Below are positions 9,573-31,638 of a DNA stretch of 33,430 bases, piece after piece (the stretch's first letter is position 1; every line of letters starts with the position of its first letter). Where the stretch lies: NCBI GenBank assembly GCA_050743905.1, contig JBOGGH010000001.1:1-33430 (forward strand). Direction: 5' to 3'. Origin of the DNA: Acidimicrobiales bacterium. Its GTDB lineage: Bacteria > Actinomycetota > Acidimicrobiia > Acidimicrobiales > RAAP-2. The notes under the pieces are model-generated. The model did no database searches, had not been told where the DNA came from, and saw only the letters and a program-made list of their open reading frames with translations. Both the position numbers and the translations under genes were made by a program.

Positions 9573-9582
9573 CTGATCCACG

Positions 9583-13981: not shown

Positions 13982-14101
13982 CGTGCGGGCCTTTCTCGTT
14001 GGATAAGAGGATAAGTGCTGGTCTTGAGGCTATTTTGGCAGGAGGCCGGAGTCCGGGCCTGGTTGGCTACACGAGGAGGGCCAGGCTGCAGCCCAGGCCC
14101 G

Positions 14102-14782
14102 TCACGAGCCGCCTCCCTCGATGAGGAACACCATGTCGATGACTTTGGCCCTCGGGTACCGGAGGCCGGTGAGGTGGTCGCTGGCGAAGTCAAGGGTTCG
14201 GACCCGCTCTCGGTCGATGGCACGCGCGTTCGCGCTGTAGAAGTTGGCGACGGCCAGCAGGGTGGGTACGTTCAGCCGAACCGGCTTGCCCGTTACCGAG
14301 CGGAGGCCTCGGCAGAAGAAGGTGTCGAATGCAGGGACCGAACCGAACACGCCCAGGATGACTTTGGTGACGAGGGTGTTCGTCGGGATCTTCGCCAGTT
14401 CGTCGCCGGACGGCTTGGCAGTGATGGCTGAGCGGATGCGTTCGATCAGGTCGAGGAGTGCGTCGATCGTGTGATCGTCGTACCGGTCGACGTCGATGTC
14501 CCAGATCGCCGCCGGCTCCGCCGCGATCGTCTTGATGACGGGGATGAAGAAGCGGTAGCTCTTGGTGTGGAGCACGGTGGAGCCGCGGAGCATTCCCCAG
14601 CTGGCCAGGTAGTAGCCGAGGTGGAGGCAGGAGGCTTCGAGGTTCTCTGGTTCGGCCAGGGTGGTGAGGTCGTGGGGTCGGTAGCTCTGGAAGTAGTTGA
14701 AGCAGTAGTCGAAGGAGGCCGCTCGCTCGTCTCGGCTTCGGTCCCGGAGATACGAGGCTACGTTGGCAGCGATGTCGACCAT
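14102..14782 (-). CDS. conserved-looking hypothetical protein (226 aa), family not recognised
   Basis: ATG 14782 lies 13 nt after the upstream stop (14796). Blocks FDYCFNYFQSY and LHLGYYLASWGMLRGS are present. Embedded in the dpd-like operon. Confidence 0.6.
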   Translation of the reverse strand: MVDIAANVASYLRDRSRDERAASFDYCFNYFQSYRPHDLTTLAEPENLEASCLHLGYYLASWGMLRGSTVLHTKSYRFFIPVIKTIAAEPAAIWDIDVDRYDDHTIDALLDLIERIRSAITAKPSGDELAKIPTNTLVTKVILGVFGSVPAFDTFFCRGLRSVTGKPVRLNVPTLLAVANFYSANARAIDRERVRTLDFASDHLTGLRYPRAKVIDMVFLIEGGGS

Positions 14783-14795
14783 GGCGATCTTGCCG

Positions 14796-16019: not shown

Positions 16020-17263
16020 GCGGCGTTCAACTCTCGCTGGAGGCGCTGACCGAAGACGTAGAGGTTGTGGAACCCTCGGCGCTTGTTGCGCTCCGATCCT
16101 CGGAACATGGCCACGTCGATGCCTACTTCGCCGCAGATGCCACAGGAGCAGGCTTTCCACGGTCGATCTTCGAGGACCTCGCGGTAGGCGTCGCTGCGGT
16201 CCTTGCGACCTTCGTCGCAGAGCTCGTCATAGGACCGGAGCGCCTTGAGGACGGTTTGGGCTTTGACCTCGCCGGCGTCGTAGCGCCGCAGGGCAACGAG
16301 GCAGTCGCGCTCCAGTCTGATGGCGGTGTCTTGGCGTATCTGCCCAGCGCGGATGCGGCCGCGCAGCTTTGGGTTGCCGTCGACCTGCGGGACGCGCAGG
16401 GCGGTGTAGGTGCGGTCGAGCACGTAGTAGTTATCGGTGTCGTCTTTGAAGGACTGACGGAACGGTGACGTCGAGTCGAAGCTGGTCACCCCCGCCTTGG
16501 CGAAGAGGTCGACGTGCTCGCATCGGGTGATGCCGAGCAGGTGCAGTTGGGTGGCGCGCTTGCGTACCTTGTTGATCTGTTTCAGGCAGGCCATGATTTC
16601 GTGCGTCTTGAGGGGGACCATGCCACCCATGGCGATCCGGCGGAAGCCGATCTTTTGGAGCTCGTCGACGGCGAAGGTGTACGACGCCGGGCTCCAGCCC
16701 TGCGCCACCCCGAGCGGCTCGAACTGCACCTTCCGGGCTCGGCAGCGATCGAGGAACTGCGCAGCCAGGTCCAAGGTGAGCTGTTGGCGTCCACGCCACT
16801 CCTGGCTCTGAGGATGGTCGCTGTCGTCATCTGCGCTCGGGTCATAGCCCAAGATGACGTGATCGACGGAGATGCCGAGGTCGAAGCCGCACTCGTGGTA
16901 GAAGTCGATGGCGTCGTCGGGGCGGTAGGGCGGCTCGTCGTCGCGGACGTAGGAGAAGGCGCCGCAGTCGCCCATGGTGGCTAGGCGGGGGCCTTCCGTT
17001 TGGTCGAGTCGGAAGAAGTCTCTGATGCCCACTCGGTAGAGGCGTTGGCGTTGGGCGATCGTGTACTTTCCGGCCGAGTTCGGGAGCCCATCGACGATGG
17101 TCTTGGAGACCAAGAACCCGTCGAACGGCGGCGCCGTCAGTGCTTCGTGGGCGTAGCGGTCGTCGCGTTGGCGGACTCGGTAGATCGATCGTTGCTCGGT
17201 CGTGAAATCGAAGCTCGGATCGATCTGGTCCTGGCTGTCGGGGAAGAAGAACTGCATCTTCAT
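16016..17263 (-). CDS. dpdA: DpdA/TgtA5-type transglycosylase (7-deazaguanine DNA-insertion enzyme family)
   Basis: The N-terminus MKMQFFFPDSQDQIDPSFDF is as I recall for DpdA. TGT-type zinc motif CSCGIC...GFH near the C-terminus. ATG 17263 overlaps the upstream stop as ATGA (17260-17263). Sits in a preQ0-biosynthesis operon. Confidence 0.85.
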   Translation of the reverse strand: MKMQFFFPDSQDQIDPSFDFTTEQRSIYRVRQRDDRYAHEALTAPPFDGFLVSKTIVDGLPNSAGKYTIAQRQRLYRVGIRDFFRLDQTEGPRLATMGDCGAFSYVRDDEPPYRPDDAIDFYHECGFDLGISVDHVILGYDPSADDDSDHPQSQEWRGRQQLTLDLAAQFLDRCRARKVQFEPLGVAQGWSPASYTFAVDELQKIGFRRIAMGGMVPLKTHEIMACLKQINKVRKRATQLHLLGITRCEHVDLFAKAGVTSFDSTSPFRQSFKDDTDNYYVLDRTYTALRVPQVDGNPKLRGRIRAGQIRQDTAIRLERDCLVALRRYDAGEVKAQTVLKALRSYDELCDEGRKDRSDAYREVLEDRPWKACSCGICGEVGIDVAMFRGSERNKRRGFHNLYVFGQRLQRELNAA

Positions 17264-18396
17264 CGTTGTGCCGCCTTGGCTTGCACGTAGATCCGGATGA
17301 GGTAACTCGACAGTTCGTTGGTGTGTCGGGGCACGTTCTGGATGTCGTTCCAGCGCATGTCCAGCCCTTCCCACGTGCCGGCGGTCCAGTGGCAGTGGGG
17401 AGCGACGAGGGCCAGGTCTTCGAGGACTTGCTCGGCGGCGGCCTTGTTGCGGGGGTCGACGGTTGCCATGACGCGGTCCATGAGTCGCCCCATGGCCCGT
17501 ATGCCGGCGCCGTGCATGAGCCGGCTCTGGGTGGGTGGCTTTCCCCACGCTTCCGGAAAGGTGGCCTGGACCGCGGACCAGTAGACGACCAGGACTTGCC
17601 AGATACCGGCGAAGTCGGTCTCGCCGCTGGTCATGTTCCGGAACGGGAACAGGCAGCCTGATGGTGAGGTGAGGCTCTCTTCGAGCATCTTGACGATGCT
17701 CGTGTCGGTCACGACGGCTTGGCGGCGGAGATCCTTGTCGGTCGAGGACCGCTTGATTAGCCCTCGGAAGGGTGACTGCTCGTCAGAGTTGAAGAGGTCG
17801 CAGAGCGCGGAGGGCATGCGCCGAAGGGCCAGGCGCGCCGGGAGCGGGCTGCTGATCGTGGGCAGCAACTCAGTGACCAGTCCTCGGGGGAGGGGTTTCG
17901 CGTTGTTAATCCGCAGGAACTGGTCGCGCTGGATGTCGATCGAATCGGTTACGAAGGCATTCACGGGCACGCAGAGGTCCTGCCGCTTGGCGCGGGCGAG
18001 GGCGAGGGTCCGTTGCTGGCCGTCGACGATCCAGCCGGCCTTGGGTTCGCCGTTGAGCGGGAGCGGGATCTCAAGCTTGCCTTGGGCGGTCGCTCCGTCT
18101 CCGATCGTTGGGCCCCGGCCCGACGTGAATTTCACGGTCGAGGGGAGCGCAACGATGATGGGGTTCGGGAAGATCACCTGGTCGCCGTCGAGGTAGTCGA
18201 CGATCTCTTGGATGTGCTGGCGAACCTCGGGGCGCTGGTAGCCGATGAGGTCACCGCTTTGGTCCCGGCTTACTCGTGAGATGTCAGCGATCTGGAGGAT
18301 CTCTGATGCGGTCAGGCTGAAGAGGTAGAGAGGGCAGCCGGGTGTTTGCTCGATACGGAGCGCCCGGAGCGTCAGCGTCGCTGGCGGTTTGCTCAT
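17260..18396 (-). CDS. DGQHR-family protein with a DGQQR variant (DpdB/DndB-like), paralog A
   Basis: GWIVDGQQRTLALARA, FLRINNAKPLPRGL and IGYQRPEVRQHIQEIVDYLDGD. ATG 18396 overlaps the upstream stop as ATGA (18393-18396). Confidence 0.8.
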   Translation of the reverse strand: MSKPPATLTLRALRIEQTPGCPLYLFSLTASEILQIADISRVSRDQSGDLIGYQRPEVRQHIQEIVDYLDGDQVIFPNPIIVALPSTVKFTSGRGPTIGDGATAQGKLEIPLPLNGEPKAGWIVDGQQRTLALARAKRQDLCVPVNAFVTDSIDIQRDQFLRINNAKPLPRGLVTELLPTISSPLPARLALRRMPSALCDLFNSDEQSPFRGLIKRSSTDKDLRRQAVVTDTSIVKMLEESLTSPSGCLFPFRNMTSGETDFAGIWQVLVVYWSAVQATFPEAWGKPPTQSRLMHGAGIRAMGRLMDRVMATVDPRNKAAAEQVLEDLALVAPHCHWTAGTWEGLDMRWNDIQNVPRHTNELSSYLIRIYVQAKAAQR

Positions 18397-19343
18397 CGGG
18401 CCTCGATTGACTCGGCGCGAAACAGCGCGGCAAAGCGACTCTGCTCGCAGGCGAGATCGGAGTTCCGGAACTCGCGGAGCAACCGAGAATGGGTGGCGGT
18501 GTCGTCGGCACGCAGCCGCCGACGGATGAACGTTCGGACCTGGGCGTCGGAGGCAGGTCTCCGTTCGTAGCGGGGAACAGGTGGCTGCTCGGCTAGTAGG
18601 GCGGTCAGCGAGGCCTCCATGTCGGCATGGCTCGTGGCACCAGCAGCTAGGACGTGGGACACGGCTCGGACGTTGAGGGCCTGCCGAGTCCCGCCAACGA
18701 CATGCTGCAAGCGTGCGTCAACCGGCAGCAGGTACGGAGCGAGTTCGGCGTCACGTTTGGTGCCCGCCGAGACGACGCTGAACTGCCCGGGCCGCGCGGA
18801 GTCGGCCGCGCTGATGAGGTCGAGGCGACAGGCCCGCACATACGGGGCCGAGAGGGCGACGATCACACGCGACGAGGGATCGTCCTCGACGAGCGCGGCG
18901 AGCGACCGGGGCGCAGCGGCTGGGCCGTCCCAGCGTTGAAGGGCCGCCCACCATCGTGCAGCCCCCGCATTGCCGTCGGGGATGCTGTCGGGGCTGTCGG
19001 CGGAGAACGTCGCCGAGTAGGGCAGGAGTTCGGCAACGGCTGGAATGAGCCCGTATCCGGCGGAGCAGATCCACAACTCGACCGGTATGCCGACGACGTC
19101 CGAATCGCAAAGGTGGCGGGCCACCTCCCAGTGTTCACCGACGTAGAGCTCTACTGCGGAAACCGTAGGGGCGGAGTTGTGGTTCAGCCGGCGGACCCAC
19201 GTCTTCATCCTGGCTGAGGGAGTGAGGTGGTTGAGGACACGCAGATGCAGCGCGTCTGGGACCACCATCGACTTGCGATGGCTGCAGGTCACGACGACCC
19301 GTATCCGCTTCGGGCGACGACTGTCGGCGCGCTTTGCTACCAA
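18393..19343 (-). CDS. DUF6884-like domain protein (N-terminal) with an unassigned C-terminal half
   Basis: RIRVVVTCSHRKS, ELYVGEHWEVARHL and WICSAGYGLIPAVAELLPYSATF match my memory of the DUF6884 pattern (Cs..K / ELY.G..f / ilSA.yGL...PYd.t). The start is uncertain: TTG 19343 (overlaps the folE2 stop) or ATG 19268. The long track extension to 19790 is rejected. Confidence 0.5.
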   Translation of the reverse strand: MVAKRADSRRPKRIRVVVTCSHRKSMVVPDALHLRVLNHLTPSARMKTWVRRLNHNSAPTVSAVELYVGEHWEVARHLCDSDVVGIPVELWICSAGYGLIPAVAELLPYSATFSADSPDSIPDGNAGAARWWAALQRWDGPAAAPRSLAALVEDDPSSRVIVALSAPYVRACRLDLISAADSARPGQFSVVSAGTKRDAELAPYLLPVDARLQHVVGGTRQALNVRAVSHVLAAGATSHADMEASLTALLAEQPPVPRYERRPASDAQVRTFIRRRLRADDTATHSRLLREFRNSDLACEQSRFAALFRAESIEAR

Positions 19344-20152
19344 CGTGCCGCCTCCGGTTGTGATGGCGGCCACGCCAGCCGGGCGAAGGCGGCGTGGTTG
19401 TGGATGCTCTCGTCGTTGACTGCTTCGACCGAGAACCTGACGAGCCTCGGATCGTGGCGCAGGCCCTCCGCGACGCTTCGGACCATGTCCTCGACGAAGA
19501 CGGGGTGGTCGTAGGCGGCCATCGTGACGTGCCGCTCGTCGCCGCGCTTGAGGAGCGGGTACACGGGGCTCGATCCGGAGGCCTCGGCCGTCTCGATGAG
19601 ATCCTCCAACCACACGGAGTCGGCGTCGTCTGACCAGCTCGGGACGGCATGAATCGTCACGATGCCCCGCTGGTTGTGTGCCCCGTAATTGCTGATCGCC
19701 TTGCTGCACGGGCAGACGCTGGTCACCGGCACACTGGCCGAGATCGCGAACTCCACGCCGTCGTCGTTGATAGAGGCGTTGATCCCGCACGTGTAGTCGA
19801 CGAGCGCGCTAGCGCCGCTCACCGGGGCCGAGCGCCGCAGGAAGTATGGGAACCGCATGACGAGTCTGGCGCTGCGAGCGTCGAGTCGGTCTCGTAGGTG
19901 CTGGAGCACCGCCGGGATCGAGTGGGGAGTGAGCTCACCGGCGTGGGCGTCGAGGACCTCGACGAACCGGCTGAGGTGACTGCCCTTCTGCTCGGGCGGC
20001 AGCGATACGGAGAGGGAGATGTTGGCGACGGTGTCTTGCTTCCCCTGCTCGGCGTGGAAGACCGATACCGGGTAGCGCAGACCGCTGATGCCGACCTCGT
20101 CGATGCCGATACCGCGGATGTCTGGCTCGCTTTGCACGTCGGGAAGGGTCAC
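19337..20152 (-). CDS. folE2: GTP cyclohydrolase IB (FolE2/MptA type)
   Basis: [21 protein letters not shown] and [16 protein letters not shown] are FolE2 signature blocks. GTG 20152 overlaps the queD stop as GTGA (20149-20152). Confidence 0.85.
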
Positions 20153-20511
20153 GTGCCCTCTCCTCGGTAGGCGACGCCGGACGTGCACGTCTCACGCACG
20201 ACGACCTCCGCCAACTGGGGCAATGCCGTGATCAAGTGGTTCCAGACCCAGCGGGCCAGGTTCTCGCTGGTCGGGTTGTCGAGTCCTTCGACCTCGTTCA
20301 AGAAGTAGTGGTCGAGCCGATCGAGCAGCGGCGCGAACGCGGCCTTGATCTCGGCGAAGTCGATGACCATCCCAGTCGCCGGATCGATGTCACCTCGGAC
20401 CCGCACCTCCACCCGGAAGGAGTGCCCGTGGAGCCGGGAACACTTGTGGCCCTCGGGAACGTGAGGGAGGCGGTGCGCGGCCTCGAAGGTGAACTCGCGA
20501 AAGACATCCAT
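20149..20511 (-). CDS. queD: 6-carboxy-5,6,7,8-tetrahydropterin synthase
   Basis: [36 protein letters not shown] is a QueD/PTPS pattern. ATG 20511 shares one base with the queE stop. Confidence 0.9.
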
Positions 20512-21149
20512 CAGCGGATCCCCGTGTACTTGTGGGTCTGGAGACTGAGCCGCCATCTCGGGTGGGCCAAGCAGTACTCGATGGCGAGCGCGGTGTTCTT
20601 CTCTCGTTCCGGGCCGTCCATGGGTTGCAGCAGGAACCGTTCGAAGCCCAAGTGCTCGAAGATGTCGGGCGTGGCCGTCGCTTGAGGGAAGACCAGCTTG
20701 AGTTCGTGACCGTGATCGAGCACGAGCGGCGCGCCGGCCTTGGGGCTCACGCAGATCCAGTCGAGCCCTCGGGGAGCCGGCTGCGTGCCGTTGGTCTCGA
20801 CTCCGACCGCGAAGCCGACCTCATGGAGGGCGTCGACTGCGGCCTCGTCCAATTGCAGGAGGGGTTCGCCGCCGGTGCACACCACGTATGGCTGGGCCTC
20901 ACCGCCGACATCGCCAGCCCAGGCGGCGGCGACCGCGTGGGACAGGTCTTCGGGAGTTTTGAACCGCCCGCCGCCGGGGCCGTCAGTCCCGACGAAGTCG
21001 GTGTCGCAGAACTGGCAGATGGCCTTCGAACGTTGCGCCTCCCGGCCGGTCCACAGGTTGCAGCGGGAGAAGCGGCAGAAGACGGCGGGGCGGCCTACCT
21101 GAGCACCCTCACCTTGGAGGGTGTAGTAGATCTCCTTGACCAGGTACAT
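20511..21149 (-). CDS. queE: 7-carboxy-7-deazaguanine synthase (radical SAM)
   Basis: [42 protein letters not shown] carries a CX14CX2C cluster motif, as in the Burkholderia-type QueE. ATG 21149 shares one base with the queC stop. Confidence 0.9.
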
Positions 21150-21847
21150 CAGCCGCGGGTCGTGGCGAGCGCCGGGTCCTCCATCCCGACCTCAGCGAAG
21201 CCCTTCTGTCGGAGCAGGCACGAGTCGCAAGTCCCACACGGCCGACCGTCGCTGTCCGGGTCGTAGCAGCTGTGGGTCAGCCCGTAGTCGACCCCGAGTT
21301 CGACCCCGCGCTGGATGATCTGCGCCTTGGTCAGGTCGATCAGGGGGGTGTGGATCCGCAGGTGCTGGTGGCCCTCGACCCCTGCCTTGGTGGCCAGGTT
21401 GGCCATCGACTCATACGCCGCGATGTACTCGGGCCGGCAGTCGGGGTAGCCGGAGTAGTCGAGCGCGTTCACCCCGATGAAGATGTCGCTGGCTTCCAGC
21501 GTCTCCGCCCAGGCCAGAGCGAAGGACAGGAAGATCGTGTTGCGGGCCGGTACGTAGGTCACCGGGATCCCCTCATCGAGGTCGTCCACGCTCTGGTGGT
21601 GAGGGACGGCGATGTCTGCGGTCAGGGCTGATCCGCCGAATGCCCGAAGGTCAATGTCAGCCACGACGTGGCCGGCGGCCCCCATGGCGTCCGCTACCCG
21701 CCGCGCCGCCGCGAGCTCCACTTCGTGGCGCTGGCCGTAACGGAAGCTCAGCGCATATGGGCGGAAGCCCTCGTCCTTGGCGATGGCCAAGACGGTCGTT
21801 GAGTCAAGACCTCCACTGAGCAGGATCACCGCTGGTTGGTCGCTCAC
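21149..21847 (-). CDS. queC: 7-cyano-7-deazaguanine (preQ0) synthase
   Basis: PP-loop [11 protein letters not shown] and C-terminal zinc motif [23 protein letters not shown] 21847 is preferred because GGAGGAG lies 5-6 nt upstream; the track start GTG 21853 abuts the RBS. Confidence 0.9.
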
Positions 21848-21909
21848 GTCCACTCCTCCGATCTGGGTCGTTGGGGTCGACGTCCTACCTTTGCACCAGG
21901 GCGCAGGTC

Positions 21910-21949
21910 AAAACTGCGTTGGTCGCTGTGCGGCCACCTCTGCAGTTTT
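21910..21949 (-). promoter_or_regulatory. stem-loop in the presumptive queC leader
   Basis: AAAACTGC (21910-21917) pairs with GCAGTTTT (21942-21949): an 8-bp stem with a 24-nt loop, 60-100 nt upstream of the queC start on the transcribed strand. Confidence 0.3.
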
Positions 21950-22161
21950 CGGCGGTGTCGTCACCCACTCGAATCACACTACTGTTATTCGTAGCGCGAG
22001 GGTGTGACCATGATTCTGAAGCCGGACGTCAAGGAGTCCCATGGAGTTTGCGCCGAGCTCTCCGGCCGCCCCCCCCGGGGGGCGTGCCGCCAGCGAGCGC
22101 CGAGGGGCGCGGACGCTGGTCAGAGGCTGAGGCGGCGGTCTTCCGGCGCAGGCCAGAGATA

Positions 22162-22286
22162 TTTTTCAGAAAAAACACCTTCGATGGGTGTTCAAGTGAC
22201 CTTCGAGTCGATACAGTACTTCTCGAAGGCACTGAAACATCGCTCGACATCGGGTGAACATCGCTGAGGTGCCAGAGAGTATCGCT
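22162..22286 (+). promoter_or_regulatory. AT-rich palindrome and phased repeats upstream of the dndB-like operon
   Basis: TTTTTC-A-GAAAAA (22162-22174). ACCTTCGA at 22177 and 22199. Inverted repeat CCTTCGAG (22200-22207) / CTCGAAGG (22222-22229). ATCGCT at 22239, 22260 and 22281, with exact 21-bp phasing. RBS TAAGGAGGA at 22296-22304. Confidence 0.35.
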
Positions 22287-22308
22287 GGACCACCGTAAGG
22301 AGGAAGAC

Positions 22309-23457
22309 ATGTACACGATCGCTGTGACCGAGGGTCACCAAGGCAAGCACCGCTACTTCACCGGAAGCGTGCCCGTGGGTGAACTGGAGCACATCGTCAA
22401 GTTCCCCGAGGACCTCGGGGACCTCGATGAAGACGAGCAGATGCAGCGGAGCATCGCCCGGCGCCGGATCGGCGACCTCGTCGAGTACCTGACTACCGTG
22501 GACGACCACTTCTTCTCCGCCGTGACCCTTATGATCCTGCCTCGGTCGCTCGACCGGCCAGCGGTCCTCGGAGACCTGGGCGACGAGGAGGACGACGGGG
22601 AGTACGACTACGCCTTCGAGCGGGCCGAACGAGGCCGTCACCCCGGCAGGATCCGACAGGGCTGGCTCCACATGAGCGGCGACGTCATGTTGTTCCCCGC
22701 CGACGGCCAGCACCGTCTCTACGCCGAGTTCGATGCCATGAAAAGCGAACCCAGTCTCTCCAAGGAGGAGCTGCCCGTCGTCTTCTTGCCCTACGAGTCC
22801 GCCGACCAGGTCCGTCAACTCTTCTCGGACCTGAACCTCAACGCCAAGCCCATCAGCAAGACGCTTGCCCTTGGCTATGAGAGCCGGGACCCCATGGCAC
22901 TCCTGGCCAAGGCTGTTGCCCCCCGGGTATCGCTGTTCCGGGAGCGGCTCAACCTGCGGACCAACTCGCTGCCCAAGAGTTCGGCCAACGTCATCACCCT
23001 CAACACCTTGGTGCAGGGATGCCGGGATCTCGTCGAGGGCTTCGCCGGTGAGGACAAGAACGACCAACGGAGCTACCTGGCGCCCAAGCACTTCGACGAA
23101 GCGGTCGCCCAGATCACCGCCGCGTGGGAAGACATCATCGACCCCTTCTCTGAGCACTGGGATCGAGTCACCAGCGACGAGATCACGCCAGGCGACCTAC
23201 GTGACGAATACCTCTTCCCCCACGGCCTCGGATGGAGAGCTCTTTCCTCCGCTGCGGGAGAACTGATCGCCGCCGACCCCGACAACTGGGCGGCCAAGTT
23301 CGCCAGAGGCGTCGGCGCCTACAACTGGGCACGCACCGCCCCCGAGTGGGAAGGCAACGCCGTCATCCACGACCGCGACAAGGGCACCAACCGGGTCAAC
23401 AACACCGACCCCGGCGTCAACCAACTCAAAGAACTGATCCTCAAGGCCGCCGCGTAG
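22309..23457 (+). CDS. DndB-like DGQHR-domain protein, paralog D
   Basis: MLFPADGQHRLYAEF and FSDLNLNAKPISKT are DndB/DGQHR blocks. A strong RBS TAAGGAGGA precedes ATG 22309. Confidence 0.8.
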   Translation: MYTIAVTEGHQGKHRYFTGSVPVGELEHIVKFPEDLGDLDEDEQMQRSIARRRIGDLVEYLTTVDDHFFSAVTLMILPRSLDRPAVLGDLGDEEDDGEYDYAFERAERGRHPGRIRQGWLHMSGDVMLFPADGQHRLYAEFDAMKSEPSLSKEELPVVFLPYESADQVRQLFSDLNLNAKPISKTLALGYESRDPMALLAKAVAPRVSLFRERLNLRTNSLPKSSANVITLNTLVQGCRDLVEGFAGEDKNDQRSYLAPKHFDEAVAQITAAWEDIIDPFSEHWDRVTSDEITPGDLRDEYLFPHGLGWRALSSAAGELIAADPDNWAAKFARGVGAYNWARTAPEWEGNAVIHDRDKGTNRVNNTDPGVNQLKELILKAAA

Positions 23458-23495
23458 GCCTCGAGGCGCACGAAACGGATCGGAGATCAACGACA

Positions 23496-24800
23496 ATGAC
23501 CAGTACCCAGCTCCCCGCACAAGGCCTCGTCTTCTGGCCCGTCGGCACCGGCGACAGCACCACGGTTGTCATCGACGACGACCACGTCATCCAAGTCGAC
23601 ATCCACGACATGGCCATGGCCGATAACGACGGCGCCATCGTTGCCGCCGTGGTCGACCATCTCGTCGAGGTACTCCCCGAACGTGACGGGGCGCCGTACC
23701 TGGCCGCCTTCATCCTGACTCACGCCGACAAGGACCACTGCCTCGGGTTCGCCGACCTCCTCGACAAGGTGACCATCGGCGAACTATGGGCCACGCCACG
23801 CTTGTGGCGGGAGTACACGGACCACGACGTCGAACTCTGCGACGACGCCAAAGCATTCCATGAGGAAGTGCTCCGCCGGGTAGACGCCACCCTGGCCGCT
23901 GTCGCCGACGGCAAGGAACCCGCGTCGGGCAACCGGATTCGTGTCGTCGGATACGACACGGATCAGGACACGTTCTCCTACCACGACCTGCCCGCCGAAT
24001 ACCTCAGCCACCCGGGCGACGCCGTGGCGATCGTCGATGGAGAGGATGTCTCGGATCGCTTCGAGGCGTTCATCCACGCACCCTTCAAGGACGACTGCGC
24101 TGCTGAGCGGAACGACACCTCCCTGGCGATCCAAGTCACGCTCAAGACCGACGAGGGCGACGAGGGCCATGCGTTGCTGCTCGGAGATCTGGCCTACGAG
24201 ACGATCACGAAGATCTTCGATTACAGCGAGGACAACGACCGACCCGAACGGCTCACCTGGGAGGTCCTCCTCGCGCCCCACCACTGCTCCAAGAAGGTCA
24301 TGTACGTGACCGAGGACGGCACCGAGGTCCTCAAGCAAGATCTCCTCGACAAGCTCGAACGTCACGAGGCGGGCTCTGCAACCGTTGTCGTGAGCAGTGA
24401 CGAATTCCCCGACAGCAACAAGACGGGGGACAACCCACCTCACCTCTTGGCACAGGCCCGCTACGAGGAGATCGCGGACTCGCTCGTCTGCACTGGCGAA
24501 TACCCAGATGCGGACGCTCCGCGCCCGATCGTGTTCGGTATCGACGGTGATGGATTCTGCATCCTCGAGTTGGAAGAGGAAGCTGCTGAGGCCGTCACCA
24601 AGTCGGCCGATGCCCGCGGCGCACTCGTAGCCGGCGGCGTAGGGGTGCTCGCAGCCCTGCCTGCCACCTACATAGCGAGTCGCAGAAAGCGACAAACGAA
24701 GCCGCAAGGCGGCGGCCTCGAAGAGGTCCGCCGAGCTGTCACCACGGCAAGAGGCGACGAAGCGGCACCTCAACAACCGGTCGGCTTCGGCCAGCCATGA
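23496..24800 (+). CDS. metallo-beta-lactamase-fold protein (ComEC C-terminal-like), with a C-terminal hydrophobic segment
   Basis: GLVFWPVGTGDSTTVVIDDD, FILTHADKDHCLG (an HxDxDH variant of HxHxDH), LLLGDLAYE and LLAPHHCSKK parallel the ComEC-type MBL blocks. The tail has GALVAGGVGVLAALPATYIA followed by SRRKRQTK. ATG 23496 follows GGAGA; the track extension to 23232 is rejected. Confidence 0.8.
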   Translation: MTSTQLPAQGLVFWPVGTGDSTTVVIDDDHVIQVDIHDMAMADNDGAIVAAVVDHLVEVLPERDGAPYLAAFILTHADKDHCLGFADLLDKVTIGELWATPRLWREYTDHDVELCDDAKAFHEEVLRRVDATLAAVADGKEPASGNRIRVVGYDTDQDTFSYHDLPAEYLSHPGDAVAIVDGEDVSDRFEAFIHAPFKDDCAAERNDTSLAIQVTLKTDEGDEGHALLLGDLAYETITKIFDYSEDNDRPERLTWEVLLAPHHCSKKVMYVTEDGTEVLKQDLLDKLERHEAGSATVVVSSDEFPDSNKTGDNPPHLLAQARYEEIADSLVCTGEYPDADAPRPIVFGIDGDGFCILELEEEAAEAVTKSADARGALVAGGVGVLAALPATYIASRRKRQTKPQGGGLEEVRRAVTTARGDEAAPQQPVGFGQP

Positions 24801-27391
24801 ACCTGTCGCTGACCACCGGTCAGCGTCTCGCCCTCGACCAACTTCGACACCTTGTCGCCTCCTCCGATGGGAGCATCGACATCCCCGCCGAGCCCACGGT
24901 TGTCGGAGATCTGCTCAAGGCGGAGATATCGCTCGACTGCTCGGGGACGCCGACCGCCGAGGGAGGACTGGCCCTACGGCGGCGGGAGCGGTTCGCCATC
25001 TACGTTGCTCCAGATTTCCCGTTCTCGATACCCACCATCGTTGTGCCTCACCACCGCTGGGCCGGGATCCCGCACGTGCAGTGGTGCTGCCAACTCTGTC
25101 TCTACGCCGCCCCGTCGATCGAGTGGGATCCGGCCGACGGAATGTTCGGGCTGATACAACGACTCAGCGAATGGCTACATCAAGCGGCCCTCGGCGAACT
25201 CGATCCCGACGATCAGCCACTCCATCCACCAGTCGCCTACACCTCGGCTACTCATGGCGTCATCGTCATCCGCGCCGACCTTGGCGACCGCGCCCCTACC
25301 ACCAGTACCACGACTCGCGGCAACTCGTCCCTCCGGTCGGCGCAGACCCAAGAGGCCAACCCCGGCGCCCGCCTCGTGGTCGGCCTGACGGTCGACCACT
25401 CAGAAGGCCGTCGAGATCTCATCGAGTGGGTGGATCGACGGGAATGGTTGCAACGCTTCACTGCCGGACAAGTCCCATCCGTCCGCGATGGCAAGCCCGT
25501 GGCCGGCGTCCTCGCTGTCCTTTGCAACGCCGAGATGAGCTTCGAGTACCCCAAGCAGGCAGCCGCCCTTATCGCGGCCCTGGAGACCTTCGGGCTCCCA
25601 CGTAACGAGCTCTTCGACGCCGTCGGAGAAGTCGCCGCCGTCAACTATGAACTCGCTCGCCACCGAGCAGGCAGCGGACCAATCAACCCTCCCCCTGTCG
25701 ATCTCCTGGTCGGCACCCCGTCTCGGCGCATGCAAGAAGCAGCCCTCAGACAGCATCTGGTGTGCTGGCGCTTCAACGACGTCGGCCGCCTCATCACCGA
25801 GAACGTGATCTTCGCCAACTCCGACCACGCGGCTCTTGCCCACCTCGGTGAACTGGCCGAAAAACTGCTCCCAGACTGGATCGCAAACACTGAAACCTCA
25901 TGGGTACGAGTACTGGAGGACCGAGCCGAGGTCACCATCCGACGCGACACCAACAGCAGCGCCTCGTGGATCCGGGGTCGCCGTATCATCGTCATCGGTT
26001 GCGGAGCACTCGGCGGTCCCATCGCCGAATTCTGTGTCCGTGGCGGGGCGGCAGCCGTCTGGGTGATCGACGAGGACATCGTCACGCCGGGCATCTTGGT
26101 GCGCCAGCCCTACACCGACGACGACATCGGCGTCAACAAGGCCGTCGCCCTCAGCAGTCGGCTCAACAGGATACGAAGCGACCAGCCCGTGCAGCCCGCA
26201 ACAGGCAGCGCTGAGGCGGTCCTCCTCGCCGACGGCGCAGGTGCGCCCAACGTTGATCTGGTCATCGACGCCACGGCCAACAACACGGTGGCAGCCCTCA
26301 TCGAACTCCGCCGAAACCAGCACGGCGAGACCTGGCCGCCGATCATGTCGGTCGCGATAGGCCACGATGCCCGACGCGGCATAGTCCTGGTCACCAAGCG
26401 CGACGCAACTGGCGGCCCCCGAGAGGTGATGCGACGACTGGCCCTTGCCGGCCGAACGCACCACTCCGGACGGCTCGCAGACGTCGCAGCGGACCTATTC
26501 CCCGCTGAGTCTCGAAGCGCGACCTTCCAACCCGAGCCGGGCTGCTCATCTCCTACCTTCACCGGATCAGCCGCTGATCTCTCGGCCCTGGCCGGGCACC
26601 TCTTCGATGCAGGGCTCCGAGCCTTGACGAGTGACGGTCCCGCCCCGACAGCCGAACCCATGGTCGCGGGCATCGTTCGGCTCCCGGAGGTGCAGAACTC
26701 GTCGCTACCTGGAACCGACTGGTTCGGATGGCCGAACGACGCCGTCTCTCGCAACAACTCCAGCGACTACGAGATTCGGATCAGCCACCCAGCCCTTTCC
26801 CGCATGCGAGCAGAGGTCCGACGAGGCGCCCGTCTCCGTGGCCCCAACATCGAGACCGGCGGCCTCCTGCTCGGCCAAATCGACGACGCGTGCCGCTGCA
26901 TCTGGATCGACGACGTCTCCGGGCCGCCGCCCGACAGCCTCCTCTCCGCCGTTCACTTCGACCACGGCGTCGAGGGCGTCAACGAACTCGTCGCCTACCA
27001 CCGAAACCGCAGCGGGCGGCTGACGACGTTCGTAGGAATGTGGCATAGCCACCCGTACGGCGAGGCCAAACCCAGCGAAACCGACGAATACGGGATGCGA
27101 AGTCTGGTAACCCCGCTAGCGAACGGCCCGAGCAGAGCGCTGATCGTGATCATCGGCGGTGATGACGCCACCTGGACCAGATGGGTGACGTCCGGCCAGC
27201 CCCCCGACATCTTCGGACAACTGGTGACCCGAGCGGACACGAAAGGGCCACGAAAAGCACCACCGGTACCACAAAGCCATCAAACCTCCGCGTGGCCGGG
27301 CGGATGGACCTCTCGACCTCGCGCAGCGACCAAAAGGCGTCGGCTGCGAGTCTGGCCCTGGCGTCGCCGACACTTGATGAGGGCAAGATGA
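24797..27391 (+). CDS. single-polypeptide E2-like / E1 (ThiF)-like / JAB (JAMM) fusion protein
   Basis: E2: IPHVQWCCQLCLYAAPSIEWDP (Cys101 codon at 25097-25099). E1: RRIIVIGCGALGGPIAEFCVRGG...VIDEDIVTPGILVRQPY. JAB: IETGGLLLGQ ... MWHSHPYGEAKPSETD (HSH codons from 27044). The start overlaps the MBL stop as ATGA (24797-24800). Confidence 0.85.
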   Translation: MNLSLTTGQRLALDQLRHLVASSDGSIDIPAEPTVVGDLLKAEISLDCSGTPTAEGGLALRRRERFAIYVAPDFPFSIPTIVVPHHRWAGIPHVQWCCQLCLYAAPSIEWDPADGMFGLIQRLSEWLHQAALGELDPDDQPLHPPVAYTSATHGVIVIRADLGDRAPTTSTTTRGNSSLRSAQTQEANPGARLVVGLTVDHSEGRRDLIEWVDRREWLQRFTAGQVPSVRDGKPVAGVLAVLCNAEMSFEYPKQAAALIAALETFGLPRNELFDAVGEVAAVNYELARHRAGSGPINPPPVDLLVGTPSRRMQEAALRQHLVCWRFNDVGRLITENVIFANSDHAALAHLGELAEKLLPDWIANTETSWVRVLEDRAEVTIRRDTNSSASWIRGRRIIVIGCGALGGPIAEFCVRGGAAAVWVIDEDIVTPGILVRQPYTDDDIGVNKAVALSSRLNRIRSDQPVQPATGSAEAVLLADGAGAPNVDLVIDATANNTVAALIELRRNQHGETWPPIMSVAIGHDARRGIVLVTKRDATGGPREVMRRLALAGRTHHSGRLADVAADLFPAESRSATFQPEPGCSSPTFTGSAADLSALAGHLFDAGLRALTSDGPAPTAEPMVAGIVRLPEVQNSSLPGTDWFGWPNDAVSRNNSSDYEIRISHPALSRMRAEVRRGARLRGPNIETGGLLLGQIDDACRCIWIDDVSGPPPDSLLSAVHFDHGVEGVNELVAYHRNRSGRLTTFVGMWHSHPYGEAKPSETDEYGMRSLVTPLANGPSRALIVIIGGDDATWTRWVTSGQPPDIFGQLVTRADTKGPRKAPPVPQSHQTSAWPGGWTSRPRAATKRRRLRVWPWRRRHLMRAR

Positions 27392-28476
27392 CTCAACCAC
27401 GAATCGGCCTGGCAATCTCAGGCGGAGGATTCCGTGCGGCGTGCTTCGGGCTCGGCTGCCTCCGTGCCCTGCACGACCAAGACCTCCTCCGACACGTCCG
27501 GGTCATCTCAGGCATCAGCGGAGGCAGCGTCCTCACCTCCCTCTATGCGTACGGGCCGGCTGAATTCGAGACCTTCGACGCGTCGGTAGTAGAGCTACTG
27601 AGACACGGAATGCAGCTTGAGATGGCGGCCCGGGCGCTCAGACCAGACACCGCCGCACGCAACCTCGCGGATGCAGCTCGCGTACTCCTTACGCCGAGAA
27701 AATCCACGCCACACCTGAGATCTGCGAATCGGACGGACGCTCTTACCGCGGTCCTCTCCAACCGAGGGCTGGGCGACAAGACGATGGCCAATATCGCCCA
27801 CAACGACCTCGCGGCCGTGATCACGGCCACCGACCTCCGCACCAGTAACGCAATGCGATTCGGCAGCCTCCGAAGTTCCTGCTCGGCATACGGAACGATC
27901 GTGGAACCAGTACGCGTTGCCGAAGCTGTCGCGGCGAGCGGAGCCTTTCCTCTCCTGCTCCCAGCAGTGGAGCGCTCCTACAACTTCCGCTCCCATCCTG
28001 ACGAACCGAGCGAACGACAAGCACTCCTGCTGACTGACGGAGGGATCTATGACAACCTCGGCCTCAGCGTCCTCGAACCCGGACGGTCCCCAGCACACAC
28101 GGCGCACACCTACGACGTCGACTACGTCATCGCATGCGATGCCGGCCGTGGAAAACTACCGCTGGCGGCCGGCCACTTCGCAGCTGCCCGTCTGAAGCGC
28201 AGCTTCGACGTCGTCCACAAAAGATCCCAAGACGCAGCTCGTGGACGACTACACGAAGCTGCTGCCGCTGGCCGAATACAGGGATTCGTCCACGCGTACC
28301 TCGGCATGGCCGACGCAAGGTTGCCGGTCCCGGTACCCGACCTCGTGCCGTCCGACGCTGTCCGGCAGTACCCGACGAACTTCCGCAAGATGCCCGACGC
28401 GTCGATCGACTCCATCAGCATGCGTGGTGAGCAGCTGACCAGGACGCTGCTCGCTCACTACTGCCCGGACCTCTGA
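27388..28476 (+). CDS. patatin-like phospholipase
   Basis: MTQPRIGLAISGGGFRAACFG (oxyanion GGGxR), ISGISGGSVL (GxSxG) and LLLTDGGIYDNLG (catalytic DGG). ATG 27388 overlaps the upstream stop as ATGA. An alternative in-frame ATG 27304 cannot be excluded. Confidence 0.85.
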   Translation: MTQPRIGLAISGGGFRAACFGLGCLRALHDQDLLRHVRVISGISGGSVLTSLYAYGPAEFETFDASVVELLRHGMQLEMAARALRPDTAARNLADAARVLLTPRKSTPHLRSANRTDALTAVLSNRGLGDKTMANIAHNDLAAVITATDLRTSNAMRFGSLRSSCSAYGTIVEPVRVAEAVAASGAFPLLLPAVERSYNFRSHPDEPSERQALLLTDGGIYDNLGLSVLEPGRSPAHTAHTYDVDYVIACDAGRGKLPLAAGHFAAARLKRSFDVVHKRSQDAARGRLHEAAAAGRIQGFVHAYLGMADARLPVPVPDLVPSDAVRQYPTNFRKMPDASIDSISMRGEQLTRTLLAHYCPDL

Positions 28477-28539
28477 CTCGTCGTCTCACGCGCGGGTCCA
28501 CATTTCGCGTAGCGCCGAGGTCAGGGAAGTAGCGGCTGG

Positions 28540-29184
28540 CTACAGCGGCCGCGCCGGGGCCACCGGCTGAAGGGAGCGGAAGTGCATCCACCAGATCATG
28601 TCGAAGATCTCGATTCTCGATCGTTCGGGAGCCTTGGCGGTCAGCGCATCCCAAGCGCTGGTGTTCTCAGAGCGGGTGAGGTCGACGTAGACCCACTCAA
28701 CGGCCTCGCGGATGCGAGAGAAGGAATAGACGCTGTCCTGCGAGGCCTTGGCCTCAGGCCACTGGGGATTCATGTAGGCACCGAAGATCGCCTCATTGTC
28801 CAAGATGGGGATCAAGACGGGCCGCTTCTTGTGCAGCACCTTCGTGGCGACCGACGCGGCGAAGCCGGGCCAGGAGGTGACGGCGGCGATCGTCTGAGCC
28901 ACGAGATCCCGAACCTGCGGGGTGCTCTCCTGCAGTGGGGTCGAGGGCACCTGGGCAAGATCGAGCTCATGACCGCGATCTTGGATGCTCTTGAAGGCGG
29001 CCGGTCCGACCCGAGAGTTGATCAGGATCGTGACCGCCAAGTCGTCCGGCACGAGAACGTTGGGATCGGCGATCGGCCGGTAGCCGAGGTAGCGCAGTCC
29101 GTCGTCAGTTCGATAGGCGTCGAGGAGGACGTCTGGGTCGCTGAGGGTCCGATCGATTCGACCACCGCCAACGAGCAGTTCCAT
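28540..29184 (-). CDS. hypothetical protein (possibly DUF6308-like)
   Basis: 214-aa track ORF. The block ATKVLHKKRPVLIPILDN recalls actinobacterial DUF6308-type proteins, from memory only. The opposite-strand ORF 28582..29193 has a shadow-ORF composition. Confidence 0.5.
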   Translation of the reverse strand: MELLVGGGRIDRTLSDPDVLLDAYRTDDGLRYLGYRPIADPNVLVPDDLAVTILINSRVGPAAFKSIQDRGHELDLAQVPSTPLQESTPQVRDLVAQTIAAVTSWPGFAASVATKVLHKKRPVLIPILDNEAIFGAYMNPQWPEAKASQDSVYSFSRIREAVEWVYVDLTRSENTSAWDALTAKAPERSRIEIFDMIWWMHFRSLQPVAPARPL

Positions 29185-29236: not shown

Positions 29237-29743
29237 ATGGCATCGTGCCAGAGTGGGGCGATGATCGATGGACCTCGGATGCTCGATGAGTTTCAGGAGG
29301 CAGCCAAGAGGGTCGGGCTGCTGAGCGAAACCGTCCTCATCAGTCACGAGCACCTGCCGGCACCCCACCGTCCGCCGTCGCGACTACGAGCCGAGAGCAC
29401 CGCCGTCTACGTATTCTCCTTGAGTGCCGACTACGGGACGACCTGCCCAGCTGGTCCGAACCGGGTGCTCAAGGTCGGGAAGGTCGGCGCCAACAGCGCC
29501 GCCCGCTTCTGCTCCCAGCACTACCTTCCCGGCTCCGCGGGCTCCAACCTGGCCAAGAGCCTGCTCGCCGAACGGGTGCTATGGCCGTACCTCGGGATCA
29601 CACAACTGGATGCAGCGGGCATCAAATCCTGGATGTGCGAGCACCTCGACAGGGACCACACCTTCGTCACCGGGCAGCCAGGTCTGGAGCGAGAGATCGA
29701 GCGTTACTTCCGCGGCCGGCTTGGTCCGGTCTTCGAGGGTTGA
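29237..29743 (+). CDS. hypothetical protein, GIY-YIG/T5orf172-like by weak motif resemblance
   Basis: TAVYVFSL ... VLKVGKVGANSAARF ... LEREIERYF loosely parallels the GIY / YIG / R / E blocks. The start is uncertain (ATG 29237, 29261 or 29279). Confidence 0.35.
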   Translation: MASCQSGAMIDGPRMLDEFQEAAKRVGLLSETVLISHEHLPAPHRPPSRLRAESTAVYVFSLSADYGTTCPAGPNRVLKVGKVGANSAARFCSQHYLPGSAGSNLAKSLLAERVLWPYLGITQLDAAGIKSWMCEHLDRDHTFVTGQPGLEREIERYFRGRLGPVFEG

Positions 29744-30394: not shown

Positions 30395-30805
30395 GTGGGG
30401 GGTGCCCATCGAGCCCTTGCCGCGCTCGCAAGGACCGCCGACGAGCGGTGCGGCCACGAACCCGGGCTCGACTGTGTCCTCTGCTTCGTGAAATACGACC
30501 AGCTCGTCGAGCATGCCGAGGGCTATCCGGGCTCCCTCTTCGCAACGGAGGACGAGCACCGTAAGTTCTCCGAAACGTACCTGAGCGATGAGCGCAACCG
30601 CGAGCGTGTCATCGCGATGGTCTTGAACGTCGCCTCCCAACAATCCGGAGATAGTGCGGACCTAGCGAATCGCATCATTGACCGGATGGCCCGCACTGAT
30701 GCTGGGTGGGCTGGGGCGAAGCCGCAGTTCTACGCCCTGCCGGCTCCTGGGGGGCTGGGGGTCGCTCTTGCGATCTACGACACCTTCTGGACCGAACGAT
30801 GGTAG
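30395..30805 (+). CDS. hypothetical protein (136 aa, Cys-x7-Cys-x2-Cys near the N-terminus)
   Basis: GTG 30395. Third-codon positions are G/C-rich throughout, consistent with coding. The stop overlaps the start of the caspase-like gene. Confidence 0.5.
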   Translation: MGGAHRALAALARTADERCGHEPGLDCVLCFVKYDQLVEHAEGYPGSLFATEDEHRKFSETYLSDERNRERVIAMVLNVASQQSGDSADLANRIIDRMARTDAGWAGAKPQFYALPAPGGLGVALAIYDTFWTERW

Positions 30806-31638
30806 CTGCGCGGGAGGACGGAACGTCGTTCGTCCTCGCGGTCGGTGTCGACGACTTCTCGGATCCCTTGATCCCGAACCTTCAGTGGGCCGTAGCTGAC
30901 GCCACCGCGTTCTTCAGCGTCGCCACGTCTGGTCGGGATCCCGATCGGCTCGATGCACGCCTCCTGGTCGACGGGAACGCGACGCTCAAGGCAGTTCGCA
31001 ACGCGCTAGGAGAATGGCTCGCCACGTCGCGGCCATCGGACAACGTTGCGGTCTACTTCGCCGGCCATGGGGCTCGTGAGCTTCCACCAGGCGCCGACAT
31101 CAACCACGCGGACGCGTACCTCCTGCCTTCCGATGCCGAGATCAACAGCCTCTATTCGACGAGCCTGTCGTTGCGCTACGAAGTCCCTACCTTGCTTCAG
31201 CGCATTGCCGCTCGTCATGTCATTTTCATCCTCGATTGTTGCCTGGCAGGAAGCTCGCGAACCACCGCTCCCGGGATGCGGAACCGTGGCATCGACGGTC
31301 CGAATATCACCCGCGCCGAAGCGGTCGCGGGGCACTCGCTCCACTCCGCAGTCGCGCTCGCAGCGGGCGGAAGCGCCGACGTCGGTGAAGGCGTCATCGT
31401 CCTGTCAGCATGTGGACCCAACCAGTCCGCCCTGGAAAGCGACGAGTTCGGACACGGCATCTTCACGCACTTCCTGACCAGCCTGATGCAGCACGACCGT
31501 GAACAGGGAGTCCAGGTGGCCTCGGTGGGTTCCCTGTACGAGCGCACGACCAAACTCGTTCGAGACTTCAGTTCCTACGAACAGATCCCGATGCTCGAAG
31601 GTCGCGTCAGCGATCAGGGACTGTATGTCGGTGGGTGA
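30799..31638 (+). CDS. caspase-like (peptidase C14 fold) protein
   Basis: FVLAVGVDDF, NVAVYFAGHGA (catalytic His) and HVIFILDCCLAGS (catalytic Cys) form the caspase His-Cys dyad. ATG 30799 overlaps the upstream gene by 7 nt. Confidence 0.75.
   Translation: MVAAREDGTSFVLAVGVDDFSDPLIPNLQWAVADATAFFSVATSGRDPDRLDARLLVDGNATLKAVRNALGEWLATSRPSDNVAVYFAGHGARELPPGADINHADAYLLPSDAEINSLYSTSLSLRYEVPTLLQRIAARHVIFILDCCLAGSSRTTAPGMRNRGIDGPNITRAEAVAGHSLHSAVALAAGGSADVGEGVIVLSACGPNQSALESDEFGHGIFTHFLTSLMQHDREQGVQVASVGSLYERTTKLVRDFSSYEQIPMLEGRVSDQGLYVGG

Follow-up and report, generated by a model that had tools for sequence, protein, structure and literature searches.

Which C-terminus is activated by a ubiquitin-type conjugation pathway when its operon carries no gene for a ubiquitin-like protein (Ubl)? 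The question is raised by an operon of an Acidimicrobiales bacterium (GenBank assembly GCA_050743905.1, contig JBOGGH010000001.1) in which a ubiquitin-conjugating (E2) domain, a ubiquitin-activating (E1) domain and a JAB-type peptidase domain are joined in a single chain. Positions given below refer to the window, by which we mean the whole 33,430-nucleotide stretch of DNA that was analysed, and the fusion in question is the open reading frame (ORF) at 24797-27391 on the plus strand. Judged by the sequences of its proteins, the operon is a 6A-MBL anti-phage system (type 6a of Iyer and colleagues) in a patatin-bearing, three-gene form. Comparative analysis points to the conserved ...VGFG tail of the metallo-beta-lactamase (MBL)-fold protein encoded directly upstream of the fusion as the missing ubiquitin-like substrate. 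We consider it likely that this MBL enzyme is itself the conjugated substrate of the 6A-MBL operon, with its tail trimmed and activated at Gly432, and that a patatin serves as the probable effector. The fusion and its domains are as follows.

24797-27391, plus strand: Cap2_3, the E2-E1-JAB triple fusion, 864 residues (NCBIfam NF058523, Pfam, PADLOC, AlphaFold2, Foldseek)
24914-25255, plus strand: E2 (UBC-like) domain, Pfam Prok-E2_A at residues 40-153; codon of the catalytic Cys101 at 25097-25099; His93 conserved
25871-26629, plus strand: E1 adenylation domain, Pfam ThiF and the PADLOC E1-E2 model, residues 359-604; codon of the crossover-loop Cys583 at 26543-26545
26750-27196, plus strand: JAB/JAMM metalloprotease domain, Pfam Prok-JAB and PADLOC JAB; Glu686, His750, His752, Ser760 and Asp763

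The catalytic apparatus of this fusion is complete as far as its conserved residues are concerned. Pfam places Prok-E2_A (6.7e-22), ThiF (8.5e-14, residues 392-502) and Prok-JAB (2.2e-11, residues 672-796) in this order along the chain, and PADLOC recognizes both an E1-E2 protein of the type found in CBASS, the anti-phage systems that signal through cyclic oligonucleotides (1.3e-78), and a JAB protein (2.8e-19). The JAB domain also gives a weak NCBIfam match to Cap3. Residue conservation was assessed in alignments of 15 and 104 full-length homologues. Throughout the larger alignment, H93, C101 and W110 of the E2 motif P92-H93-V-Q-W...C101...W110-x-P112 are invariant, and the E1 blocks G401-x-G403-x-x-G406, D425-E-D427 and R436-Q437 are invariant or nearly so, with K448, D491 and the crossover-loop C583 (PEPGCS) likewise conserved. 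The JAB residues E686 and H750-x-H752-x7-S760-x2-D763, which correspond to the canonical HxH-x7-S-x2-D pattern, are conserved in the same alignment. These results bear out the preliminary description of this locus, made from the sequence alone, which had placed all three activities with intact catalytic motifs in one 864-residue chain. The E2 loop and the E1 blocks (GxGxxG and D-x-D...RQ) that it quoted are present and conserved, as are the catalytic JAB residues, although its spacing 'HSHP-x7-S' is off by one because the seven intervening residues include P753.

Structural comparison points to the same relatives. An AlphaFold2 model of the native fusion (predicted local distance difference test, pLDDT, 83.5) has as its top Foldseek match 7to3, the Enterobacter cloacae Cap2 protein in complex with CdnD, a cGAS/DncV-like nucleotidyltransferase (CD-NTase; E 1.9e-22), and a profile search of PDB sequences concurs by aligning the E1 domain with Cap2 in 7to3 (7.4e-19). 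Chains of ThiF, MoeB, MccB, PaaA and Atg7 are also among the sequence and structure matches of the E1 domain. A loop that follows the E2 helix, LDPDDQPLHPPVAY (25202-25240, residues 136-148), has invariant D136, H143, P144 and P145, and the model gives pLDDT below 50 to residues 138-151, which take in most of it. This loop may be a partner- or target-binding element.

Membership in 6A-MBL follows from the fact that both the fusion and its MBL neighbour exceed the NCBIfam equivalog cut-offs, with 350.1 bits against 320 for NF058523 ('6A-MBL_cap2_3') and 265.6 bits against 220 for NF058524 ('6A-MBL_enzyme'). Operon type 6a was described by Iyer, Burroughs and Aravind in 2006 (PMC1779556). Two later sources (PMC13276650; 10.1101/2025.09.30.679545) present 6A-MBL as validated against phages, including jumbo phages in Pseudomonas aeruginosa, and credit this to van den Berg et al. 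2024. That the enzyme of an MBL pathway is itself what becomes conjugated, as in type II CBASS, is a view also expressed in the literature (PMC11601596). As in the described family, the window has a triple-module protein directly downstream of a specialised MBL-fold gene, no Ubl gene, and a setting in a mobile or defence island. It differs from that family in its translationally coupled patatin as a third gene, in the 80-residue tether of its MBL protein, where the family model stops at residue 353, and in the 65-residue tail of its fusion, which contains the motif [WY]xGG[WYF] and falls outside a model that stops at residue 785.

Is a Ubl gene perhaps present in other members of the family? 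The neighbourhoods of 80 loci around relatives of the fusion were examined by querying their ORFs with the window proteins, and the flanking ORFs of 45 orthologous operons were clustered to find conserved neighbours. In about 40 of the loci a full-length triple fusion lies directly downstream of an MBL gene. No Ubl-like ORF was found in the window, and no small gene is conserved in the flanks of the 45 orthologous operons, so a separate Ubl gene is not a regular companion of these operons. No cluster of flanking ORFs extends to more than 11 of the 45 loci, and the largest consists of an M78 peptidase. The statement in the preliminary description that no small beta-grasp ORF ending in Gly lies in or near the operon therefore holds for the window and for the orthologous loci alike. 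One hidden Ubl candidate, an ORF at 21871-22257 in the upstream intergenic region that ends in Gly, was rejected because it is broken by indels of 1, 5 and 11 nucleotides relative to a metagenome contig (L083) that is colinear with window positions 20699-28477. This contig shares 89% nucleotide identity with the window and the same arrangement of queC followed by the genes for a DGQHR protein, the MBL protein, the fusion and the patatin, and its homology to the window ends at the patatin stop codon. Within the operon, the MBL/fusion and fusion/patatin junctions are both 4-nucleotide ATGA overlaps, and these three genes form a cassette that moves as a self-contained unit between unrelated contexts.

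If the activated C-terminus is not that of a Ubl, the protein encoded immediately upstream of the fusion is the first candidate to consider. Its features are the following.

23496-24800, plus strand: 6A-MBL MBL-fold protein, 434 residues, with a predicted ComEC-like metallo-phosphodiesterase core (residues 1-360) and then a flexible C-terminal tether (NF058524)
24618-24680, plus strand: hydrophobic tether segment, residues 375-395, GALVAGGVGVLAALPATYIAS, followed by RRKRQ (from the translation)
24711-24791, plus strand: conserved MBL C-terminal block, residues 406-432, GGLEEVRRAVTTARGDEAAPQQPVGFG, ending in Gly432, the proposed E1-activated residue
24792-24797, plus strand: two-residue extension Gln433-Pro434 past the conserved Gly, a proposed JAB-trimmed propeptide

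The AlphaFold2 model of the native MBL protein (pLDDT 88.4) consists of a confident core (residues 1-360), a disordered stretch (379-405), a conserved helix (407-419) and an extended end. Its top Foldseek match is the nuclease-type MBL domain of ComEC (9ic4, E 1.6e-13), followed by phosphorylcholine esterase and RNase J. The metal-site residues D35, H76, D80, H81, D231, H262 and H263 are invariant, and the retention of the motif H76-x-D-x-D80-H81 together with D231 and H262-H263 argues that the protein is a metal-dependent phosphodiesterase. As modelled, the succession of tether, helix and extended end resembles the CD-NTase tail that enters the adenylation site of Cap2 (10.1101/2022.03.31.486616). 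The hydrophobic segment of the tether is found in the closest clade only and is modelled with pLDDT below 50, and other members have an Ala-rich segment instead.

The C-terminus of this protein, by comparison with the rest of its tail, is well conserved. All MBL orthologues at the loci, those of Chloroflexota (GFGRRRD) and Bacteroidetes (GFGK) among them, end in ...ARGxxxAPxxx(V/I)GFG plus zero to four unrelated residues, and an MBL homologue on a Rhizobium plasmid ends in KVGFGAE. Among 120 close database homologues, 111 end in ...APxxx(V/I)GFG followed by zero to seven variable residues, and a logo of these 111 gives R at -13 in 98%, G at -12 in 97%, P at -7 in 98%, V at -3 in 86% and G-F-G in 100%. 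Beyond GFG the same 111 proteins have 45 different endings, and six have no further residue. Of the nine exceptions, the majority retain an xFG end and the others are truncated. The ARG..AP..VGFG block is the best-conserved part of an otherwise variable and disordered tail, and G432 is nearly invariant in 79 sequences down to 26% identity.

A wider survey extends the signature well beyond close relatives. Among 64 full-length representatives of clusters at 50% identity, reaching down to about 27% identity, an aromatic residue followed by Gly or Ala ([FYHW][GA]) occurs within the last seven residues of 56, compared with a chance mean of 5.1 and a maximum of 14 in 2000 trials. In 27 of the 64 this pair forms the very end of the protein (for example ...PKTYG, ...RHG and ...GFA). 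The ending PVGFGQP, which the preliminary description had read as a site where a JAB cut could expose Gly, is thus confirmed in sequence, and aligned orthologue C-termini do retain the Gly or Ala at issue.

Furthermore, the signature does not depend on the MBL fold. The triple fusions of loci L032-L035 and L043 have no MBL neighbour, and a different protein occupies the upstream slot. In L032-L035 it is a Zn-ribbon-like protein with an N-terminal CxxC...CxxC pattern and no Pfam match, and in L043 it is a protein with a weak SMODS match. These slot proteins end in AIFGI, TFGTP, AVFGS, AVFGS and LTYG, that is, in FG or YG plus zero to two residues. Because non-MBL proteins in this position still end in this manner, the aromatic-Gly tail belongs to the slot and not to the fold. 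We regard this slot-wide signature as the strongest comparative argument that the E1 domain activates the C-terminus of the upstream partner. The slot proteins lie at 8451-9971 (L032), 8751-9998 (L033), 8913-9980 (L034), 9036-9992 (L035) and 8514-9983 (L043) of their loci, and a gene for a small nucleotidyltransferase (NTP_transf_2) is located downstream in L033 and L035.

These observations also bear on the idea that the activated C-terminus comes from a protein encoded elsewhere, be it an unlinked Ubl or a host or phage protein, in which case the MBL protein would be only an effector. The lack of a Ubl gene in the operon is what one would expect under this proposal, and for CBASS the conjugation targets are likewise still described as unknown (PMC11601596). 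However, the movement of the three-gene cassette as a self-contained unit speaks against a partner located elsewhere, and an aromatic-Gly end with a variable extension on any protein that occupies the slot would be left without explanation. We judge this proposal quite improbable. The preliminary description had placed the activated C-terminus with an operon partner or with a host or phage protein; the absence of a Ubl gene from orthologous operons and the conservation of the MBL C-terminus support an operon partner and favour the MBL protein.

A second operon partner had been put forward, namely the product of the gene that precedes the MBL gene.

22309-23457, plus strand: DGQHR/DndB-like protein, 382 residues, co-directional and 38 nucleotides upstream of the MBL gene (Pfam DndB 1.4e-58, TIGR03187 1.5e-43)

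The KAAA end reported for this protein is correct, its gene runs in the same direction as the operon, and the arrangement is kept in L083. Despite this, no DGQHR homologue was found within 10 kb of the fusion in the 80 loci (phmmer, and jackhmmer started from the window's four DGQHR paralogues together), and in L081 and L082, whose fusions are 89% identical to that of the window, a Replic_Relax gene lies upstream in its place. Its C-terminus is also unlike the aromatic-Gly signature, and we consider the chance that this protein is the conjugated partner next to negligible. The single gap inside the operon that had been pointed out is real (38 nucleotides, 23458-23495), but it separates a gene that is not a conserved component from the MBL gene. 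The protein scores 148 bits against the DndB equivalog cut-off of 328 and has no match to DpdB in NCBIfam. Given its presence in L083, the gene travels with the cassette in this lineage only, and its distribution marks it as a lineage-specific neighbour that stands outside the conserved system.

Family membership, intact catalytic residues, the absence of a Ubl gene and the conservation of the partner C-terminus are observed. What we infer is each chemical step, the target of conjugation, and what the MBL protein and the patatin do, in the following sequence. The JAB domain would trim Gln433-Pro434 to expose Gly432 of ...PVGFG, and the E1 domain would then adenylate this residue. The acyl group would pass to Cys583 of the E1 domain and from there to Cys101 of the E2 domain, and the MBL tail would finally be ligated to an amine on a target, thereby priming the ComEC-like phosphodiesterase. 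The JAB domain could also reverse the conjugate, as Cap3 does. Given that many members need no trimming, the main task of the JAB domain is probably deconjugation, as for Cap3, with trimming as an additional task where an extension exists. The patatin lipase, in a variable third slot and probably bound to Cap2_3, would be the likely membrane-degrading effector.

The E1 domain might instead perform chemistry on the MBL tail that involves no ligation, such as cyclisation of the MccB or PaaA type or thiocarboxylation of the ThiF or MoeB type, and ThiF, MoeB, MccB and PaaA are indeed among its relatives. Such chemistry would not account for the retention across the family of E1 Cys583 and of the invariant His93 and Cys101 in the E2 domain, and the closest relative, Cap2, is a demonstrated protein ligase. 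This makes a non-conjugating reaction very improbable, and conjugation of the MBL enzyme remains the reading that we favour.

The gene that follows the fusion was not counted as a partner in the preliminary description. This needs to be revised because the gene is translationally coupled to the fusion, conserved, and in some loci fused to it.

27388-28476, plus strand: patatin-like phospholipase, 362 residues, probable effector (Pfam Patatin 1.3e-17)

This last gene of the operon starts at 27388 (MTQPRIGLAISGGGFR), where its ATG overlaps the stop codon of the fusion. The oxyanion motif G12-G-G-x-R16, Ser44 in GxSxG and Asp217 in DGG are at least 97% conserved among 33 orthologues, and the nearest solved relatives are PlpD and ExoU. 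A patatin gene continues the MBL-fusion pair in about 35 of the roughly 40 loci, a figure of about 35 that also applies when all 45 loci are taken, and it also lies behind the fusion in the distant locus L087, whose MBL protein is about 30% identical. In L012 and P0107 the patatin and Cap2_3 form single chains (1210 and 1220 residues, respectively), which argues for physical association between the two proteins. The third genes of L085, L088 and the Rhizobium locus are unrelated, and L036 has none. With a patatin, an unrelated gene or no gene at this position, the third position can be viewed as a variable effector slot, as in CBASS. The patatin C-terminus was tried as a candidate substrate and rejected: its conserved RGEQLTRxLLxxYCPxL looks like part of the fold, and there is no terminal Gly. 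We found nothing in the literature on patatin combined with MBL and JAB proteins.

The fusion itself ends in a tail that deserves separate attention.

27260-27388, plus strand: clade-specific fusion tail, PPVPQSH...W833-P-G835-G836-W837 and then a 27-residue Arg/Trp-rich end; motif at nucleotides 27293-27307

Residues 822-864 read PPVPQSHQTSAW-P-G-G-W followed by 27 residues rich in Arg and Trp. A motif of the form [WFYL]xGG[WFYLT] occurs within the last 90 residues of 97 of the 109 full-length homologues, which is more than 100-fold over the background in the same proteins (0.0075 per 90 residues elsewhere). In the alignment of 15 sequences G836 does not vary, and in that of 104 each of G835 and G836 reaches at least 90% conservation. 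Despite its location in a tail, the region around the motif (residues 821-840) is modelled with pLDDT of about 80. The element may act as a self-substrate, as a pseudo-substrate or in docking.

The fusion might be its own substrate, with its JAB domain cutting after Gly836 of W-P-G-G-W and its E1 domain activating the new Gly-Gly end, or the motif might act as a built-in pseudo-substrate of the JAB or E1 site. Such a cut would set free the Arg/Trp-rich tail or, where the patatin is part of the chain, the patatin domain. The frequency of the motif, its near-invariant glycines and its modelled order are what one would predict under this proposal, as is the P0107 chain, in which a linker and the patatin domain come after a related YHPAGW in place of an Arg-rich end. 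The fusion-patatin chain of L012, however, is without the motif, and the tail is missing from the distant members L030, L036, L085, L087, L088 and the Rhizobium protein, yet in each of these cases the partner still has its aromatic-Gly end. The tail also lies outside the family model, and the conserved aromatic residue after GG and the long, compositionally conserved extension that follows are unlike a disposable propeptide. For these reasons we rate the tail as a minor rival to the MBL C-terminus, and self-conjugation of the fusion seems unlikely.

It is important to note which observations weigh against the MBL enzyme as the substrate. The conserved GG tail of the fusion could compete for this role. 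The hydrophobic segment of the MBL tether resembles a transmembrane segment, and if it does span a membrane, the MBL core and its tail would be on opposite sides. In addition, the patatin has no match among the PADLOC library models, which include CBASS components. Conjugation of the MBL enzyme in its plain form explains neither the tail motif nor the hydrophobic tether nor the coupling of the patatin, and this is why we still allow for a membrane-directed elaboration of 6A-MBL in this actinobacterial clade, distinctly unlikely as we judge it. Here, [WY]xGG[WYF] would be a second JAB site, at which cleavage would free the Arg/Trp-rich end as a membrane-active peptide or, in fused versions, free the patatin domain. 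Alternatively or in addition, the MBL protein would be joined through Gly432 to an amine lipid of the membrane, in the way that Atg7 and Atg3 attach Atg8. The nuclease-like MBL enzyme and the phospholipase would thereby be brought to the membrane.

The proposal that the MBL enzyme is the substrate has a parallel in type II CBASS, which corresponds to Iyer type 6b. There, the substrate is the disordered C-terminal tail of an enzyme of the system, with Gly or Ala as the last residue, and Cap3 cuts exactly after that residue (10.1101/2022.03.31.486616). By this analogy, the window operon would have no Ubl gene because the MBL enzyme is itself conjugated, as the CD-NTase is in type II CBASS. The two systems share homologous E2-E1 ligase and JAB peptidase domains, and a phospholipase effector (CapV) is common in CBASS. 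They differ in that a ComEC-like MBL phosphodiesterase replaces the CD-NTase, that the JAB domain is fused to the ligase instead of being encoded by a separate gene, and that the evidence for the window operon implies no second messenger. Consistent with the first of these differences, comparison of the four operon proteins with Pfam, PADLOC and NCBIfam gave no match to a nucleotidyltransferase, SMODS or CD-NTase family.

Comparison with other conjugation systems is also instructive. Ligases of the Cap2 type have been described as resembling Atg7 plus Atg3 or Atg10 (PMC10557695). In autophagy, however, the substrate of Atg7 is a beta-grasp Ubl (Atg8 or Atg12), whereas here an enzyme tail is proposed. 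The Bil and Bub systems (Iyer types 6c-6e) likewise bring E1, E2 and JAB-type activities into phage-defence contexts, but their operons encode E1 and E2 as separate proteins together with a dedicated Ubl that ends in Gly. No such Ubl gene is found in the window or in the 45 loci, and separate E1 and E2 proteins are absent here as well.

With regard to expression of the operon, a scan of positions 21700-28800 for promoters and terminators yielded nothing above the expectation from shuffled sequence, and a search for RNA runs bearing the window sequence found none, only DNA metagenome runs (cave metagenome). The intergenic region between queC and the DGQHR gene contains a perfect 8-base-pair inverted repeat, CCTTCGAG-N14-CTCGAAGG, at 22200-22229. 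This repeat is inside a block conserved in L083, and its surroundings have diverged with indels. Either the DGQHR-MBL-fusion-patatin transcript or the divergent queC operon could have its operator here. Among the relatives, 11 of the 45 loci have an M78 (IrrE-like) peptidase gene upstream of the MBL gene in divergent orientation, and six have a gene for a small helix-turn-helix protein (examples at L001 5155-6162, L003 3375-3728 and L085 4311-5194). This pair resembles the CapP and CapH regulators of CBASS.

The operon lies in a defence island, as indicated by the SIR2, TIR, OLD/AriA-like ATPase, Dpd and caspase genes in the window. On the minus strand at 12566-21853, divergent from the operon, lie the genes for the modification half of a 7-deazaguanine (Dpd) DNA system, and these and other neighbours are listed below.

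16016-17548, minus strand: DpdA
14796-16160, minus strand: DpdB
17260-18396, minus strand: DpdB
18393-19790, minus strand: DpdC
1091-2641: SIR2-like protein
2667-3920: TIR protein (PADLOC PDC-S66/ThsB-like)
4946-6469: MobA/VirD2 relaxase
7177-9051: OLD/AriA/GajA-like ATPase
30706-31638: caspase-like peptidase

The Dpd block also contains the genes for FolE2, QueD, QueE and QueC, and it is accompanied by another divergent DGQHR protein, the third (12566-13981), and by an HNH protein (11736-12929). Within the window we saw no helicase or restriction genes of the dpdD-K set. The caspase-like gene is preceded by two small ORFs, one of which (29237-29743) ends in ...VFEG.

The same cassette of MBL, E2-E1-JAB and patatin genes is present on plasmid pDK1 of Rhodococcus sp. 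DK176 (L090; NZ_CP118323.1, 391014-395879), where RefSeq labels the products as a hypothetical protein, a ThiF family adenylyltransferase and a patatin-like phospholipase. It occurs in the cultured Rhodococcus sp. strains DK17, DK176 and DK180. A DUF6308 gene lies just past the cassette in the window (28540-29184, minus strand), and a fragment of such a gene is likewise found on pDK1 (L090 8338-8625). The other 80 loci yielded no DUF6308 gene.

Given that 6A-MBL is a named family and that the idea of an enzyme as its own substrate is already in the literature, it seems appropriate to state what the current analysis adds. We provide a quantitative C-terminal signature that extends across the family and across partner folds, we exclude the DGQHR protein as a partner, and we identify the patatin as a coupled and sometimes fused third component. 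Added to these are a clade-specific, GG-containing ligase tail and the homologue on Rhodococcus plasmid pDK1. For annotation, the patatin is to be counted in the system and the DGQHR neighbour is not. Precise and inexpensive test sites for 6A-MBL are now available in Gly432, the Gln-Pro propeptide, Cys583, Cys101 and the JAB metal site, and the presence of the pDK1 cassette in a cultured Rhodococcus makes the prediction testable in a tractable host. If the chemistry that we infer is correct, 'ubiquitination without ubiquitin' would extend beyond CBASS. A portable aromatic-Gly tail on the enzyme encoded just upstream of a Cap2-type ligase, whatever the fold of that enzyme, would then be a simple sequence rule for spotting the substrates of such pathways.

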